From a virus (taxonomy: Duplodnaviria > Caudoviricetes), in IMG/VR virus record IMGVR_UViG_3300031134_000004, positions 96,001 to 160,000 of that record: a stretch of DNA of 64,000 nucleotides; one strand, given 5' to 3'. Below are positions 6,083 through 37,291 of the stretch, one piece after another. Made by a program: the position numbers and the translations under genes. The notes beneath the pieces are model-generated. The model searched no databases. It had not been told where the DNA came from and was given only the letters and a program-made list of their open reading frames with translations. Within the stretch, counting starts at the first letter, position 1, and each line of letters opens with the position of its first letter.

Positions 6083-7582
6083 ATGGGTACTGCACTGAAA
6101 ATCTCCGAACTCCCAACCGCCGGGGAAGTATCGGGCAGCGAATTGCTGGAAATTGTACAAGACGGCGTGAACAAAAGCGTTCTGGTAAGCACCCTCGTAC
6201 CGCGCGCTCGTGACGGTCGCGATGGTAAAGACGGCGTGGACGGCAAGAGCCCGTTCGAGCTGGCCCAGCGCAATGGCTTTACTGGCACGGAAGTCGAGTG
6301 GCTGGCAAGTCTGAAAGCCCAAGACGGCGTTGACGGTATCGATGGTACGGACGGTACGGACGGCCGCGATGGCACCAATGGCAAAGATGGCGAATCGAAC
6401 TACCAGGTCGCCGTACGCAATGGTTTCGTCGGCACTGAAGCCCAATACCTGGCTTCCCTTAAAGGCACCGCTGGCCGTGATGGTACGAACGGCAAGGATG
6501 GTGTCGATGGCAAGGACGGCACCAACGGCAAAGATGGCGCGCCTGGTAAAAGCAACTACCAGATCGCTGTGGACAACGGCTTTGAAGGCACCGAGGCGCA
6601 ATACCTGACCTCGACTGCTGGTGAAGACGGTCGTGACGGTGTGGATGGTCAAGACGGTGAAGGCATCTACCAACTGGCACGCCGCAATGGCTTTGTCGGT
6701 TCGGAAGCTGAATACCTCGCCTCGATCAAAGGCGCTAACGGCGCTGATGGTATCGATGGTGAATCGAACTACCAGCGTGCTGTGGAACTGGGTCTGTTTG
6801 TGGGTACGGAAGCAGCGTACCTGGCTTCGCTCAAAGGTGCCGATGGTGTTGATGGCACTGATGGTGTCGACGGTACTGACGGTACTGATGGTGCCGATGG
6901 TATGGATATCTACGCGCTGGCTAAGTCGAAAGGCTACGCTGGTTCGGAAGATCAATACCTGGCTTCGCTGCACGGTCGTGATGGTACGAACGGCAAGGAT
7001 GGCACCAATGGTAAGGATGGTGTCAATGGTAAGTCCTCGTATGAAGTTGCCAAAGCAGGTGGTTACAACGGTAGCGAAGCGGAATGGCTGCTCTCCCTTA
7101 AAGGCACTGCTGGCAAAGATGGCGTCGACGGTAAGAGCGCTTACCAAGTCGCTACTGCTGGCGGTTACGTCGGTACGGAAGCTGCGTGGCTGCTGAGCTT
7201 GAAGGGTGCACGCGGTGACGCAGGTCCTCCAGGCGGTGAGGCGACGTTCTTTGACCTGGGTAAGAACACTGTTGCCGGTACGGTGATGACGTTCGACCAG
7301 ACCAAGGGTACTGTGCAAAAGCTGGAAGTTGGTGCGCCAACGACCGTTGCTCTGTCGAACTTCGCCCCAGCTGGCCGCAGCAGCGAACTCGTGCTCCAAC
7401 TGGTCAATGGTGGACTGTTCACTACCACGTTCCCATCGGATGTGAACTGGATCAAGATCGATGGCACCACCACCAAAGTGTTTGCTGAAACGGGCATTGC
7501 CCTGCAAGGCGCTGGTGTGGACTTCGTGATGTTCTGGTCCTACGACGGCGGTGTTACTGTCTTCGGTAAAGTCATGCGTTAA
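6083..7582 (+). CDS. Collagen-like tail fibre protein
   Basis: Eight copies of a ~25 aa S-x-Y-Q-x-A-x-x-x-G-F-x-G-T-E-A-x-Y/W-L-x-S-L-K-G repeat alternating with GxDG collagen tracts; C-terminal domain shared with 450..1460. Confidence 0.85.
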   Translation: MGTALKISELPTAGEVSGSELLEIVQDGVNKSVLVSTLVPRARDGRDGKDGVDGKSPFELAQRNGFTGTEVEWLASLKAQDGVDGIDGTDGTDGRDGTNGKDGESNYQVAVRNGFVGTEAQYLASLKGTAGRDGTNGKDGVDGKDGTNGKDGAPGKSNYQIAVDNGFEGTEAQYLTSTAGEDGRDGVDGQDGEGIYQLARRNGFVGSEAEYLASIKGANGADGIDGESNYQRAVELGLFVGTEAAYLASLKGADGVDGTDGVDGTDGTDGADGMDIYALAKSKGYAGSEDQYLASLHGRDGTNGKDGTNGKDGVNGKSSYEVAKAGGYNGSEAEWLLSLKGTAGKDGVDGKSAYQVATAGGYVGTEAAWLLSLKGARGDAGPPGGEATFFDLGKNTVAGTVMTFDQTKGTVQKLEVGAPTTVALSNFAPAGRSSELVLQLVNGGLFTTTFPSDVNWIKIDGTTTKVFAETGIALQGAGVDFVMFWSYDGGVTVFGKVMR

Positions 7583-7639
7583 GTCGCGTAGAGGGGAGCT
7601 TCGGCTCTCCTTTATGCCGTACCTAAATTATCTTGGTTA

Positions 7640-7647
7640 CATATCAC
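7640..7647 (+). promoter_or_regulatory. Early-promoter-like motif (CATATCAC)
   Basis: Variant of the phiKZ early promoter TATATTAC in AT-rich intergenic DNA upstream of 7697. Confidence 0.45.
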
Positions 7648-7696
7648 CCTACTAGCAATACACACGTATTTAACTATTACTAGGGGTTATAAAAAC

Positions 7697-8065
7697 ATGC
7701 CACGTTTTAAAATAGAAGGAGATGGTGACTTCGGTTACGTTCTTCGTTTGAATAATTTGCTAGGTCGCAATAAGCTCGATGGCCGGCTTGACCAGATTAG
7801 CCTAGGTCCGTGCGAATCGATTGAGACACTTCGTACACTCTACGAGAATGAACTGGTTGAACCTTACGATGAAGAAGGTCCGGACTTGATTATTCATGGG
7901 GAGATGAAAACCTACACCAAGTACTTTCGTAAAGGCGGTGGTCTTGAATGGTGCTGTCCACTGAACAACCAAGCGCAATGGGAAGGCATGGATGAATCAG
8001 GTGCAGGTCTGGATGATGTCTTGCTGCGGGTGACGAACATTACGAAACGCGAGCCCTGTGAGTAA
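7697..8065 (+). CDS. Hypothetical protein
   Basis: 122 aa ORF after promoter-like motif and GGGG RBS. Confidence 0.7.
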   Translation: MPRFKIEGDGDFGYVLRLNNLLGRNKLDGRLDQISLGPCESIETLRTLYENELVEPYDEEGPDLIIHGEMKTYTKYFRKGGGLEWCCPLNNQAQWEGMDESGAGLDDVLLRVTNITKREPCE

Positions 8066-8079
8066 AAATTTACATGACG

Positions 8080-8960
8080 ACATCATTCTTTGCAAGAACA
8101 CAGCGCCATGGAACGACAATGTGTTTGAGACCTCGCTTCGTAGAAGCTATCTGAAGAGCCGTGAAAGTCGGCATGCTGGGTGTCAACGTCCAGTAAAGGT
8201 GAAAATCCTTCGAAACATAACCACACAGTGCACGGCGATGCGTCGCCCAGTTACTGGTGTCATGCAGCTCGCTTGCGCCTCGCTATTGCGAAACGGCGCG
8301 ATGGCGGCAGCCTTTGCCCGAGTCCTTCGAGTCTTGGGATGCTTTGGTGGTTGTGTCATAGCAGCGAGACTTTACAGTGGACAAAGCACCGGGAGGTGTG
8401 TCGGGACTGACTATCCTAAAAACTGTACGACTGGTTTCATCGGGCTGTCAACCCATGATCCAGTAAGTTGTTCTCCTCTCTTAAAAGTTAGGAGGTTGTT
8501 TTCATGTGGCCGCCTTTCGAAGAACTCGAATTGGCCGCCGGAGCGAAGCGCCTGAAGGTTGAGGACGCAGGTGCTTGGCTGCTCTCTTGCAGCCTTGGCT
8601 TGCACTACCAATAGTGCCTATACGCAACGCAACATAAAGCAGCACGCAGCCGCAAGGTGTTCACATTTGAGTCTTCATTCCTCAGAGAAGACACGAACGA
8701 TTTGCTAGAGGCCAGTCTTCATCGATAGAAGGCGGACGCACAAGTTCGGACTTGAGAATACCTTGTGGATGCGGTAATACACGCAACCGATTTCACACAA
8801 CTTCACTACCTTTGTTTCTTGATGCATCTACTTACTCCTCCTCCGTTGTTGGTTCGTCTTGGACTTGGATTTCTTCGTCGATTTGGGGAGTTGTGTGAAT
8901 CTATTAAAGTCCTCTACAGATGGTTAGGCGTTTGTGTGTGATGAACATCCCAACTCCCGT
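8080..8960 (+). ncRNA. Candidate large structured non-coding RNA
   Basis: ~0.9 kb without a credible long ORF, dense in hairpins (GNRA/UUCG-type loops) and long-range helices. Confidence 0.45.
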
Positions 8961-9122
8961 TGGCGTCAGCAATGTTCGCTACACATGGCCTTAATTAGTA
9001 GCAGTCTGTGGTAGGGCTCTTTTGTTCGTGCTACGAGTCTTCCTTAACGGGAAGACTCTATGCCGATGTGTTGTACCTGAGTTACGGCGGGTCTCCGTAA
9101 CACTACTATTAGGAGCATTACC

Positions 9123-9548
9123 ATGAAGTTGAAATTCGAGAAAGAAACGCAAGACGTCATCAACGCTATTGCCCAACTGCCTGATGAAGCAGGTTCACCT
9201 GCAGGCTTGGCCAAACCCAACCAGTTAATTGGTGTGTTTGACAAGGTCATTCTCGGTGACAAAGCCAATCGCAATGCGCCATCGAAACACTGGGCTAAGC
9301 TGCGGCGTCAATTGAGTTTCCTCTACGAGATCGTCAACATCGGTGCTATCGCTGGCAAGAAGGTGTCGCAAACCGGCGGGGAAGAAAGCCTTAAAGAATC
9401 GTACCGGATGATCGTGACGATCTGCAAGAAGATTGTTGCAGGCACGTCGCTTGACCATCCAATGTTTGTGCGCCTTGCACTCAGTTATGGCGTGCTGCAT
9501 TTGTCGGACCATGAGATTCAAAAGCTGATCGACGGTAACAACGTTTAA
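9123..9548 (+). CDS. Hypothetical protein
   Basis: 141 aa, AGGAG RBS. Confidence 0.75.
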   Translation: MKLKFEKETQDVINAIAQLPDEAGSPAGLAKPNQLIGVFDKVILGDKANRNAPSKHWAKLRRQLSFLYEIVNIGAIAGKKVSQTGGEESLKESYRMIVTICKKIVAGTSLDHPMFVRLALSYGVLHLSDHEIQKLIDGNNV

Positions 9549-9562
9549 CATAAGGAACTACC

Positions 9563-9829
9563 ATGTCGCGTCGCTTATTCCTTAAAGGACTGGCTGGATT
9601 GTTTGTAGCTCCAGCAATTGTCAAAGCCGAAAACATCATGAAGATTGCAGTTCCTAGGACAGAGATTATTCTGCCCGAAGAATTCAATCCACTGAACTTC
9701 GGCAACATGGTGTGGAGACCTGAATTGACGTTGGTTTTGCCGACTACGTGTAACGTCAAAGAGATCCATGTCCAACCAATGTTCAGACAAAGCATTGAAT
9801 CCTCGATGCCTATTCTGTTGACGTCGTAA
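9563..9829 (+). CDS. Microprotein: Tat-like signal fused to a major-capsid C-terminal segment
   Basis: N-term MSRRLFLK twin-Arg motif; NPLNFGNMVWRPELTLVLP matches capsid NPMHFGNMAWKPELTLVLP at 15/19 aa. Confidence 0.7.
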   Translation: MSRRLFLKGLAGLFVAPAIVKAENIMKIAVPRTEIILPEEFNPLNFGNMVWRPELTLVLPTTCNVKEIHVQPMFRQSIESSMPILLTS

Positions 9830-9901
9830 TCTATTCAGTTGCGGCCTGTCCCTCGGGGCAGGCTTTTATGCCCTAATACCGCAATAAAGAAACAAGGAAC
9901 A

Positions 9902-10537
9902 ATGATGAACACTACAAAACTTGAAGCGGCTTTGCTGTCGCACTGCACTGGTAACTTCCTGGACATGCACTTGGAGTTTAACGACCACAAGAGCTGCTAC
10001 GGCACCATTGAAGACCACGAGAAAAGCTACCCCAATATCACCTATAAGTGGGTGAGCGAAGAAGAACGTTTGGCCGCTTACGCTGCTAACGAGATGTGGG
10101 GTATTGCTACGACGGGTGCAGGTAAAGGCGCGTATCGCTCCAATACCAGCAACAAACTTTCCACGCTTGTTCAAAGCTGGGGTGAGATCGATCAAGAAAC
10201 CATCGAACAAGCCGAGCAGCTGGCTGAGTGGTTGCGCTCCCAATTCGAAGGCAAGTACGCTTCTGCCAACATCACCTACACGGTGGGTCAAGAAGTGACT
10301 CGCTATATTGACAACAAGTGGGTAACGAGTATCGATAACGTTGCAACCATCGTCGCTGAAGAAGGGAGTAACTTTTCCGATGAAGAAGATTGGGTCAGCG
10401 TGGAAGAGCGTCAAAAAGCCATTGATCAAAATGGCATTTGGTCTGTGCAGATCTACCCAAACACGCCGATCGGTTCTTACTCGTATCACGCAGCTTCGCT
10501 GCAAGCTATCCTGGAATTTTTGATGCGGCTTAGCTAA
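9902..10537 (+). CDS. Hypothetical protein with internal domain duplication
   Basis: AAACAAGGAA RBS; two WVSxEER..A...N..W repeats. Confidence 0.75.
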   Translation: MMNTTKLEAALLSHCTGNFLDMHLEFNDHKSCYGTIEDHEKSYPNITYKWVSEEERLAAYAANEMWGIATTGAGKGAYRSNTSNKLSTLVQSWGEIDQETIEQAEQLAEWLRSQFEGKYASANITYTVGQEVTRYIDNKWVTSIDNVATIVAEEGSNFSDEEDWVSVEERQKAIDQNGIWSVQIYPNTPIGSYSYHAASLQAILEFLMRLS

Positions 10538-10548
10538 TAAGTCAAACG

Positions 10549-10572
10549 CCTTCCTTTCGGGGAAGGTTTTTT
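10549..10572 (+). terminator. Intrinsic terminator
   Basis: CCTTCC-TTTCGG-GGAAGG then TTTTTT. Confidence 0.7.
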
Positions 10573-10623
10573 GATTGTTCTTGTATTAACAATATGTAAA
10601 TAATTACGATACGAGTATAAGTT

Positions 10624-35122: not shown

Positions 35123-37291
35123 ATGAACCTGTTCACTAACAAGAACCGTCCCGGCTCGGCTCACGTCAGCACCGCCCTGGACAACCTGGTCGCCGGTATC
35201 CAATCGCACCTGAACCAATCGGGTTCGACCTTCGTGTCGAGCGCAGTGGCCAAGGGCGCAATGTCGATGGAATCGATCGATCCTGTCATTCAGCAAGAAC
35301 TGGGCAGCGCCTGCGACGACCTGAACACCGCGCTGGAAGGCATCGCCACCGAACTGAACATCTCGGCACAACTGAGCACCAGCCAGAAGAACGCTGCAAC
35401 GGCCGCCGGCATCATCGCCTCGGACATCCGCGGCTTCCTGCACGCCCCGATCAAGCGCGACGTCGTCGCTCAAGAAAACATGGCGTTCATCTCGCCACGC
35501 GGCGGCGACGCCTTCGACGCACGTATGAAGCCAGCCCTGGAAGCATACGACGAGAAGGAAAACAAGAACGCCGTCGTGTACTCGGTCGCGTACAACATGC
35601 AAGCTGCTCGCCAGGACGAGTTCGCTGAAACGTTCTACCCAACCGTCGTCGTCACGCCTGACCAAGTCGGTTTCGCCGTGTCGATCCGCCTGATCCAAGT
35701 GTACCGCGAAGTGCGTCGTCAGACCAACGGTAACACCGACAAGTTCAACAAGCAGAACATCATCAAGGCCGTCATCGATCCAACGATCCTGCGCAACGAC
35801 CAGATGAAGATCGTCCCGGTCTACCGCGATGAATCGCGCGCACACTTCGTCGACAGCGCCCTGGTCAAGCCACGCGACCTGGACCTGGAAGGCACGATGA
35901 TCCCAACGGCGCCGCTGGCAATGGGCAAGAAGTTCTCGCTGCTGGCCATCTCGCAAACCGACGCCCTGCTGGAAACCGGTCTGCAAGACACCACCGATTC
36001 GATCGACACCGCTGTCGTGCTGAACGCACTGTACGTGCAAGTCGGTAACGAAGTGTTCAAGTTCAACACCGCGCGTCTGCCGACCGCGACCTTCAACTAC
36101 GCTGTGCAGGGCAACTATCGCCAGATGAACCTGCAGTTCGAAAACAGCTCGCTGAAGATCGACAAGGACACCAAGACCGTCGCTCAAGCCGCATCGGTCG
36201 TGCTGGCTGACATCGCATCGGGCGAATACACCGTGCGCCTGAACGCTGCTGTCTCGGGTTCGGTGAACCTGGAACTGGCTGACACCAGCCTGTTCGCATC
36301 GGACGTCATCGTTGCTCGCGTGACCAACAAGGACGGCGAAGTGCTGGCCCTGGACGGCGCCGAAGCCAAAGCGATCGTGGACCTGTTCAAAGCAGCCAAG
36401 ATCATCGGTTACGACCTGGACGCACAGCGTACCAACCTGAACCGTCGCATGCGTGGTGACCTGCTGGACACCACCTTCTACAACCAGGTCTACGCGGTGC
36501 CACTGCGTTCGCCAATCACCATCCCACGTCCGCTGACCGCTGGCGATCAGAACGACAGCTCGGATCTGGCTGCCCTGATCACTGCAACGCGTATCCGCAC
36601 CAGCAACGCGGCCGTCGACGAACTGCTGCGCGTCGAAGACATCCTGAAGGAATTCGTCAACAGCAAAGACTCGATCCACGATTCCCCAGAAATCCTGGGT
36701 ATCTCGCGCTTCCTGGTCCAGCCGTTCTTCGAAAAGGCTGTCCTGGACGTGGCCAAGGAAATCGACTCGCTGCGTTCGTTCGAACGTGCAGCCGACGTGC
36801 AAGCACTGCTGGTGAACAAGCTGCGTGACATGGCTTACCGCATGTACCGCGACTCGGGCTACAAGGCAGCTGCTGACGCGCTGGCCGGCGGCATCTCGCA
36901 AGTGCCAACCGTCATCATCGGCACCGATCCAGTCCTGGCTCGCTACCTGATGGTCTCGGGCGACTTCCGCACCCTGGGCAACGACTTCAACGTCAAGGTC
37001 GTCTCGACGCTGAACGAGCGCATGGCTGGCAAGATCATCATGACCTTCGGCGTGTTCAACGGCGAAACGGATGGCGTGCCAAACCCAATGCACTTCGGTA
37101 ACATGGCCTGGAAACCAGAACTGACCCTGGTGCTGCCGCTGCATCGCAACGGCGCCAACAGCAAAGAACTGACCGTCCAGCCGTCGTTCATCCACATCAC
37201 CAACCTGCCGATCATGGCTTCGATCGAAGTCGTGGGTATCGAAGACGTCGTTGCATCGAAGAACGCCGTCCTGATCACCGAAAAGCCGTAA
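35123..37291 (+). CDS. Major capsid protein (phiKZ gp120-like)
   Basis: 722 aa, SMES/ALEG processing-type motifs, ARQDEFAETFYPTVVVTPDQ, RRMRGDLLD; strongly C-ending codon bias. Confidence 0.9.
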   Translation: MNLFTNKNRPGSAHVSTALDNLVAGIQSHLNQSGSTFVSSAVAKGAMSMESIDPVIQQELGSACDDLNTALEGIATELNISAQLSTSQKNAATAAGIIASDIRGFLHAPIKRDVVAQENMAFISPRGGDAFDARMKPALEAYDEKENKNAVVYSVAYNMQAARQDEFAETFYPTVVVTPDQVGFAVSIRLIQVYREVRRQTNGNTDKFNKQNIIKAVIDPTILRNDQMKIVPVYRDESRAHFVDSALVKPRDLDLEGTMIPTAPLAMGKKFSLLAISQTDALLETGLQDTTDSIDTAVVLNALYVQVGNEVFKFNTARLPTATFNYAVQGNYRQMNLQFENSSLKIDKDTKTVAQAASVVLADIASGEYTVRLNAAVSGSVNLELADTSLFASDVIVARVTNKDGEVLALDGAEAKAIVDLFKAAKIIGYDLDAQRTNLNRRMRGDLLDTTFYNQVYAVPLRSPITIPRPLTAGDQNDSSDLAALITATRIRTSNAAVDELLRVEDILKEFVNSKDSIHDSPEILGISRFLVQPFFEKAVLDVAKEIDSLRSFERAADVQALLVNKLRDMAYRMYRDSGYKAAADALAGGISQVPTVIIGTDPVLARYLMVSGDFRTLGNDFNVKVVSTLNERMAGKIIMTFGVFNGETDGVPNPMHFGNMAWKPELTLVLPLHRNGANSKELTVQPSFIHITNLPIMASIEVVGIEDVVASKNAVLITEKP

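Follow-up and report, generated by a model that had tools for sequence, protein, structure and literature searches.

The twin-arginine translocation (Tat) signals of bacteria, as captured by the PF10518 and TIGR01409 models and as found on TorA and the small subunits of hydrogenases, have an S-R-R-x-F-L-K motif, a moderate hydrophobic core, a proline at -6, a basic residue at -2, and small residues on either side of the latter (-3 and -1). All of these features recur at the start of an open reading frame (ORF) of 88 amino acids (aa) in a tailed phage known from metagenomic sequence, where they precede a piece of the phage's own major capsid protein (MCP). The ORF lies at positions 9563-9829 of the DNA analysed here (the window, 64,000 nucleotides, which corresponds to positions 96,001 to 160,000 of the IMG/VR record IMGVR_UViG_3300031134_000004). 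Compared with the bacterial signals, the phage leader is only 22-23 residues long, has a fixed internal spacing, is nearly invariant across unrelated phages, and is followed by a conserved linker; moreover, its passenger is a predicted non-folding fragment rather than a cofactor-containing enzyme, and neither model recognizes the window ORF. The passenger has its own well-described relative in the PhiKZ gp120-type MCP, of which solved examples include PDB 8Y6V. Residues 42-85 of the ORF are homologous to MCP residues 654-698 and the same positions are conserved in both, although the ORF holds only about 45 of the 722 capsid residues, amounting to four strands, and cannot form the HK97 fold.

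Several other systems offer partial parallels. The redirectors of phage satellites, such as CpmB of Staphylococcus aureus pathogenicity islands (SaPI), Ccm of phage-inducible chromosomal islands (PICI) and Sid of P4, are also small proteins of mobile elements that act on the capsid protein or its scaffold site. They are, however, aimed at a helper phage and lack an export leader, and while CpmB and Sid are unrelated to the MCP, Ccm has the whole MCP fold. The window ORF, by comparison, resides in a 224.6-kb jumbo phage that carries the parent MCP, a large terminase (TerL), a DNA polymerase and RNA polymerase (RNAP) subunits. In Tat ‘hitchhiker’ export (HybO/HybC, DmsA/DmsB) a small subunit bearing the Tat signal could bring along a partner without a signal, a parallel that is conceptual only, as the passenger here is an unfolded fragment. 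The capsid-derived restriction factors of animals (Fv1, enJS56A1) are likewise selected copies of a capsid protein, truncated or altered, that interfere with capsids; these are host genes derived from endogenous viruses, whereas the window gene is encoded by a virus and has an export-type leader. Finally, the Gol peptide of T4 gp23, the trigger of the e14 abortive-infection protease Lit (PMC3014915), is a short linear MCP piece with an activity of its own, and the equivalent region is carried by P0082, one of the relatives of the window ORF described below. Gol acts within the nascent full-length gp23 and has no separate gene, whereas the window ORF copies the C-terminal strands of an unrelated MCP family. 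We know of no Lit-like partner for the window ORF. Satellite redirectors, Gol, Tat hitchhikers and animal restriction factors are functional analogies rather than relatives.

The window ORF was initially viewed as a one-off microprotein, but it turns out to be one member of a large modular family. This family is restricted to phages and is built of three modules: a Tat-type leader, a linker of about 16 residues (together referred to as the N-module), and a piece of a virion or packaging protein. In the full-text literature no description was found of small phage genes in which a Tat leader is joined to parts of structural proteins of the same phage, and this is apparently a widespread phage gene design that has escaped description. 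The features of the window gene and its parent are collected in Table 1.

Table 1. Coordinates in the window of the 88-aa gene, its signals and modules, and the parent capsid gene
Feature	Position	Strand	Basis or remarks
Ribosome-binding site TAAGGA	9551..9556	+	6 nt before ATG; read from sequence
88-aa gene, stop codon included	9563..9829	+	ATG start; dN/dS 0.14; syntenic ortholog P0002 on contigs L008-L010
Tat-type leader, aa 1-22	9563..9628	+	SRRLFLK, hydrophobic core, Pro -6, Val -3, Lys -2, Ala -1
Linker, aa 23-40, E-N-I-M-K-I-x-V-P ... I-I-L-P	9629..9682	+	Family-wide conservation
MCP-like segment, aa 41-85	9683..9817	+	Copy of four capsid beta-strands; BLASTP, Pfam, dN/dS
Intrinsic-terminator-like hairpin and U-run	9844..9869	+	Fold of 9826-9885 = -20.3 kcal/mol, z -2.3
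MCP gene, PhiKZ gp120 type, 722 aa	35123..37291	+	PF25620 PhiKZ_MCP E 3e-203; phrog_3231 E 9e-199
Parent segment, MCP aa 654-698	37082..37216	+	Strands 659-664, 668-675, 678-685, 688-693; AlphaFold2 (AF2) model and BLASTP alignment

The copied segment, its leader and its age

The ORF, its intact frame and its ribosome-binding site were reread from the sequence and are as the initial annotation gave them; the start codon is ATG. Its product aligns with MCP residues 654-698 with 24 of 47 positions identical (BLASTP, E 1e-12), and the match is far beyond chance, because the same query, run against all six frames of the 224,654-bp genome, returned only the ORF itself and the MCP gene (the latter at E 2.5e-9). 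The initial annotation had counted 15 identities in a 19-residue core and placed the two genes about 27 kb apart; both figures hold, the exact separation being 27.3 kb. It had also noted similarity at the DNA level, which does exist but is only modest, at about 75% in the core and with many third-position differences. Residues 34-75 of the ORF fall on positions 573-613 of the 635 positions of the Pfam model PhiKZ_MCP (E 6e-4) and on the PHROGs model phrog_3231 (E 2e-3); the Pfam match, at 18.4 bits, falls short of the family cut-off of 27 and concerns positions 573-613 only. On sequence grounds, the 88-aa protein is a fragment-bearing paralog of the MCP and not a capsid protein.

In the AF2 model of the MCP, which has a mean predicted local distance difference test (pLDDT) score of 80.6 and scores of 73-92 within the segment, residues 654-698 form four consecutive beta-strands, i.e., a four-stranded beta-meander. 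When the 88-aa protein was modelled alone with the family alignment, no confident fold was obtained (pLDDT 59, predicted template modelling score 0.15), as would be expected for strands excised from their sheet.

The twin-arginine motif and hydrophobic core reported at first were found again, with SRRLFLK at aa 2-8, a core of 12 residues, and V-K-A at aa 20-22 closing the stretch A-P-A-I-V-K-A (aa 16-22), in agreement with the Tat consensus. A family logo built from 105 members places the two arginines at positions 3-4 and shows a distance of 14 residues between them and the proline in 96 of these members; among all 107 members collected, the arginines and the phenylalanine are each present in at least 90%. 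Ahead of the predicted cleavage site the logo reads A (100%), P at -6 (100%), A (97%), I (88%), V at -3 (91%), K or R at -2 (95%) and A at -1 (93%). In a cleavable Tat signal, the pair of arginines is combined with a helix-breaking residue at -6 and with small residues at -3 and -1, and a basic residue at -2 provides ‘Sec avoidance’; the invariant positions of the leader are thus apparently the determinants of such a signal, and export is predicted. Conservation does not stop there: past the predicted cleavage site there is Glu at +1 (81%), Met at +4 (95%), Ile, Leu or Val at +6 (96%) and Pro at +9 (88%), so that it reaches about 16 residues beyond the site, which is unusual for a signal peptide. 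The window ORF fits every position of the logo, from RR-x-F-L through the 14-residue spacing and A-P-A-I-V-[KR]-A to E-[NS]-[LI]-M-K-I-x-V-P.

It is this conservation from +1 to +16, for which a plain signal peptide has no need, that might instead point to the N-module being an anchor on the cytoplasmic face of the membrane, or a handle for a partner near a membrane site of capsid assembly, and not an export signal. In nucleus-forming jumbo phages, capsid assembly takes place at the cell membrane, and an unfoldable, partly hydrophobic passenger may fail Tat proofreading. Nevertheless, we regard such a role as distinctly unlikely: the invariant positions match the Tat and signal-peptidase determinants exactly, some members carry whole domains of extracytoplasmic type (fn3, Laminin_G_3, tail Collar) for which export would be natural, and the family also occurs in phage types with no known membrane-bound assembly. 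A propeptide for capsid targeting and removal by the prohead protease was also considered. The cleavage motif of this protease is L/I-x-E in T4 and S/A/G-x-E in PhiKZ; in the I-V-K-A-E of the family, the -3 position to Glu23 is Lys or Arg in 95% of members, which does not fit, and the N-module is the same across phages with differing prohead proteases. Longer proteins with the N-module were also sought, with no match; this counts as weak evidence.

The age of the copy can be judged from a related phage (contigs L008-L010) in which an ortholog, P0002, occupies the same position in the same gene order. The two small proteins are 76% identical, compared with 51% and 48% for the two neighbours upstream, and in blastn comparison of the two phages the ORF region is the best-conserved DNA of the whole locus. 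The Nei-Gojobori ratio of nonsynonymous to synonymous substitution rates (dN/dS) is 0.14 overall, with dS at about 1.2. For aa 1-40, comprising leader and linker, the ratio is 0.05 (Fisher test for pS > pN, the proportions of synonymous and nonsynonymous differences, p 1.5e-9); for aa 41-88 it is 0.23 (p 3.6e-4), and for aa 41-76 it is 0.20. In two other ortholog pairs of the family the C-terminal part has a ratio of 0.33-0.34 (p ~0.005). When the 50-residue segments of 36 MCPs were placed in one tree with those of 20 small ORFs, the window fragment grouped with the fragments P0002, P0016, P0003 and P0014 (support 85/82) and not with its own MCP. The branches of the small ORFs are several times longer than those of the MCPs, indicating that the fragments evolve faster; otherwise the tree is poorly resolved and leaves room for a single origin of the small-ORF fragments. 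The copy is thus old and diverged, and the ORF is a real protein-coding gene under purifying selection in both halves.

The architecture by itself, a gene fragment behind a foreign N-terminus, would bring to mind a functionless chimera or a decaying pseudogene fragment, and the initial annotation had listed a recent chimeric duplication among its explanations and a non-conserved, neutrally decaying fragment as the contrary case. Neither agrees with the data. Synonymous sites are saturated and the DNA is only about 75% identical to its parent, so that the copy must be old rather than a recent duplicate; the fragment stands apart from its own MCP in the tree; an ortholog has been kept, with a low dN/dS and better conservation than its neighbours; and the family comprises about 80 clusters. 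An explanation of this kind is barely credible, and simple debris is rejected. The same DNA identity, the scattering of the third-position changes and the tree rule out gene conversion and a template/variable pair like those of diversity-generating retroelements (DGR).

Family members and their C-terminal pieces

An exhaustive phmmer search of 1.84 billion representative proteins recovered 80 clusters at 50% identity (E<=1e-3). Nearly all of the proteins are 65-190 aa in length and match via their first ~40 residues. Scanning IMG/VR with the N-module pattern yielded 30 loci; the viral contigs that bear them range from 4 to 322 kb and include complete genomes of 62, 70, 180 and 322 kb, whereas among prokaryotes (one genome per species, 185,579 species) only four loci were found, all on contigs of metagenome-assembled genomes of Alpha- and Betaproteobacteria. 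The complete 322-kb jumbo phage (G001, IMGVR_UViG_3300010224_000001) has three members, which occupy 257210-258286 and 241323-241682 on the minus strand; two of the three are adjacent. No member was detected in 50,697 records of cultured phages by tblastn with three members as queries, which matched MCP genes only, although the low-complexity filter may hide the leader; nor did the DNA of the window locus match any cultured phage. Look-alikes in the ESM Atlas were limited to unnamed viral clusters and generic Tat proteins, all below 0.9.

The nature of the C-terminal pieces was assessed by scanning the 107 members one by one against PHROGs (E<=1e-3) and Pfam. All functionally named PHROG matches are to major head proteins or to tail fibre, collar or tail proteins. 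Five head families account for about 18 members (phrog_3231 for 13, phrog_138 for two, and phrog_1328, phrog_12830 and phrog_9953 for one each) and tail families for about 10. Pfam assigned PhiKZ_MCP to 17 members, Laminin_G_3 to five, Collar and Gp23 to two each, and SU10_MCP and fn3 to one each. Different members hold different parts of PhiKZ_MCP, namely positions 70-102 (P0083), 480-535 (P0073) and 573-613 (the group of the window ORF), and pieces of other capsid types occur in P0071 (SU10_MCP positions 11-129, 48.6 bits) and P0082 (Gp23 positions 3-44, 39.2 bits); the family is found in phages with unrelated capsid types.

Some pieces derive from proteins other than capsid and tail components, namely TerL and probably RNAP beta-prime. 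Four members share a segment, GRGMT..I.H[IV]DE..F, that matches residues ~214-230 of the TerL of the window genome; a profile of the four segments ranks this TerL first among 1,051 ORFs (E 4e-6), and the segment may correspond to a Walker-B-like strand. A [FY]DGD segment is present in 11 members, and the top matches of its profile are the two beta-prime-like ORFs of the window genome (E 0.004 and 0.013), which is suggestive only of an origin from RNAP beta-prime. There are also members with two pieces, either a TerL Walker-B-like strand followed by a beta-prime-like DFDGD, or DFDGD followed by an MCP piece; motifs are strung together in P0035, P0065, P0078 and P0084, and also in P0007, P0019, P0023 and P0083. 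Two further assignments were dropped: a DNA-polymerase piece, based on a single weak tblastn match of P0022 (E 8e-5) with no polymerase in the PHROG tally, and a P22-type coat N-terminus in L090, seen by eye and unconfirmed by Pfam.

An MCP-like piece proved traceable in three genomes, and in all three it led to the phage's own MCP. In the window genome (G000) and in G001 the parent is the phage's own PhiKZ-type MCP, and in a complete 62-kb phage (G004) the member ends in a weak match (E 3.5e-4) to residues 3-24 of the phage's own Mu-gpT-like head protein. Of the adjacent pair in G001, one member has an MCP piece, while its neighbour combines DFDGD with a piece of a 915-aa ORF (298711-301458; E 3e-9) that itself has no Pfam or PHROG match. 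Of eight members tested for a parent, all from complete genomes, four had none that was detectable.

The stringing together of core-gene motifs (TerL with RNAP beta-prime, or RNAP beta-prime with MCP) could be taken to mean that these elements work as nucleic acids, i.e., as homology patches for recombination or repair, or that they are by-products of mobile elements, with translation being incidental. Genes similar to those for HNH/endonuclease VII proteins (phrog_1035, phrog_26577) are indeed found no more than about 1 kb away from members in three independent contexts (L068:2361-2909, L076:4801-5460, L088:2903-3640). Such a gene is absent from the vicinity of the ORF in the window genome, and three of ~32 contexts is compatible with chance for HNH genes, which are common in phages; the association with homing endonucleases was therefore discarded. 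Moreover, the protein has been conserved despite saturation of its synonymous sites, and the parent DNA is only about 75% identical, all of which makes a role at the level of nucleic acid very unlikely. As a separate observation, TerL genes adjoin members in five contexts and helicase genes in three.

The contrast between a uniform N-module and extremely diverse C-termini raises the question of which part does the work. One view would be that the leader itself, acting on the Tat translocase, signal peptidase or signal-peptide peptidase, or as an effector once released, is the working part and that the C-terminal piece is a passenger. The N-module is conserved well beyond what is ordinary for a signal peptide, with its fixed spacing, its dN/dS of 0.05 and its presence in phages with unrelated capsids. 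Against this, three ortholog pairs show purifying selection on the C-terminal parts, which are not random but strongly enriched for capsid and tail-fibre pieces and which, in the case of the MCP-like piece, keep the conserved positions of the parent. We give this view little credence.

A further proposal takes its cue from the identity of the parent proteins. MCP, TerL and tail fibres overlap the known triggers of pattern-recognition defences, which in bacteria include CapRel, Lit, Pif and Avs, and the small proteins could be decoys or antagonists of host sensors for capsid and other virion proteins, with the leader sequestering or removing the complex. The fragments retain conserved residues of their parents, and P0082, a member of T4 type, corresponds to gp23 residues ~90-134 (compared with L138, the gp23 of Escherichia phage teqhad), the region described as the Gol trigger of Lit, which lies in the first, most conserved quarter of gp23 (PMC3014915). 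The overlap with Gol may, however, be a detection bias, as only the most conserved pieces are recognizable by sequence search, and a trigger peptide would be expected to activate a sensor and not to block it. Known capsid sensors act in the cytoplasm, and those of Avs type read folded surfaces, which pieces of 15-45 residues cannot mimic; the leader, in turn, predicts export away from the cytoplasm. The initial annotation had named this role along with that of an assembly modulator, both of which are putative. Overall, a function as sensor decoy seems unlikely, if not negligibly so.

Proposed mode of action

The reading that we tentatively favour, as a possibility short of a probability, is that the protein is a structural mimic, tethered by its leader, that engages whatever normally packs against the copied capsid strands. 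The leader would take the protein to the Tat machinery of the inner membrane, and cleavage there by signal peptidase, directly after Ala22, would leave 66 residues. Unable to fold alone but keeping the residues conserved in the MCP, these 66 residues would pair with the normal packing partner of the strands. The simplest partner would be the capsid protein, encoded by the phage itself or by a relative infecting the same cell, in the course of folding or assembly, and the effect would be that the partner is held or diverted at the membrane. The proposal follows from the fact that residues of the MCP have been retained in a protein that is incapable of the MCP fold. Column by column, information content in the small proteins is correlated with that in the MCPs (Spearman 0.67, p 2e-7), and columns conserved in both include, in MCP numbering, F658, G659, N660, M661, W663, P665, E666, R675, V685, P687 and P696. 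That the small proteins keep the conserved positions of the MCP fits some form of mimicry.

A number of considerations weigh against mimicry at the membrane. The test of column conservation is partly biased, as members were recognized partly through the same motif. Tat export, cleavage, the binding partner and the biological effect are all steps that we infer. The leader is short for a Tat signal, and the window ORF matches neither the TAT_signal (PF10518) nor the TIGR01409 hidden Markov model; within the family, TAT_signal matches 25 of the 107 members at E<=1e-3, and scores above the curated cut-offs are reached by P0071 and P0035 (22.8 and 23.4 vs 22.7) and by P0011 and P0082 (18.4 and 17.2 vs 16.7). 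Full export would leave the capsid piece in the periplasm, a compartment in which capsid protein is not known to occur. The Walker-B strand of TerL and the DFDGD loop that probably comes from RNAP beta-prime are buried catalytic motifs and would not be natural binding surfaces. Finally, interference would also strike the phage itself, because the motif of its own MCP is almost the same (15/19).

A broader version of the idea, a modular ‘leader plus bait’, would have a universal Tat leader joined to a short conserved piece of a virion or packaging protein as bait. The bait would capture a specific partner in the cytoplasm, such as an immune sensor of the host or the structural proteins of a rival phage, whereupon the leader would drag the complex to or through the Tat translocase and so clear the partner from the cytoplasm. 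This would amount to a new kind of counter-defence or inter-phage exclusion if true, which we consider improbable.

If the design operates at the protein level, as the data on selection indicate, phages would have repeatedly excised short pieces of their own capsid, tail-fibre and packaging proteins and kept them for a long time behind one universal export-type leader. This would point to a hitherto unrecognized step in phage biology, in which capsid assembly might be controlled at the membrane, competitors excluded, or capsid-sensing immunity evaded. Leader, linker and bait are separable modules, and the step is thus directly testable. The N-module in addition offers a compact marker for metagenome searches, and the family serves as a reminder that small phage ORFs that resemble gene debris can be conserved functional genes.

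The locus and its genome

The record is that of a PhiKZ-type jumbo phage, estimated by CheckV to be 84% complete at 224,654 bp; the sample behind it was probably a phyllosphere metagenome. In MCP sequence the phage shows 58% identity to Burkholderia phage FLC9 and 46% to Ralstonia phages RP12 and RP31. The genome encodes a divergent family-B DNA polymerase, the large terminase, and a homologue of PhiKZ gp55, the beta-prime subunit of the non-virion RNA polymerase (nvRNAP; PDB 7OGP chain A, E 1e-94). A second ORF with the motif TADFDGDTAS lies outside the window (G000 203997-205883, 628 aa) and has no match to any solved structure; it presumably encodes the beta-prime-like subunit of the phage's second RNA polymerase, that of virion type.

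Within the window, a 141-aa gene upstream of the 88-aa ORF ends at 9548, and directly 3' of the stop codon of the ORF there is a GC-rich hairpin of 8 bp (9844-9863) followed by UUUUAU, which makes the ORF the last gene of a co-directional run. Only one RNA library contains part of this stretch, and none of its contigs extends across the ORF, which is neutral with regard to expression. About 2 kb upstream of the ORF there is a gene for a 499-aa collagen-repeat protein with strong matches to tail-fibre PHROGs (6083-7582, plus strand), and the related phage has a 484-aa Laminin_G_3 protein in the same position; the ORF therefore adjoins a variable locus of tail-fibre type.

The kilobase upstream of the operon (8066-9122) is poor in ORFs. 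A search of positions 7500-10600 against Rfam found nothing. A contig from a phyllosphere metatranscriptome covers 8413-8730 at a word depth of ~139, compared with 2-8 in the flanking contigs, and the same interval folds better than shuffled sequences (z -2.9 on the plus and -2.1 on the minus strand). The related phage (L008) shares two conserved islands with this region, one at 8144-8215 (89%) and one at 8640-8796 (77%). In run X2, a biofilm metagenome, there is a variant of the phage with ~2% differences over 8367-10396, and among the differences listed none falls within 9557-10446.

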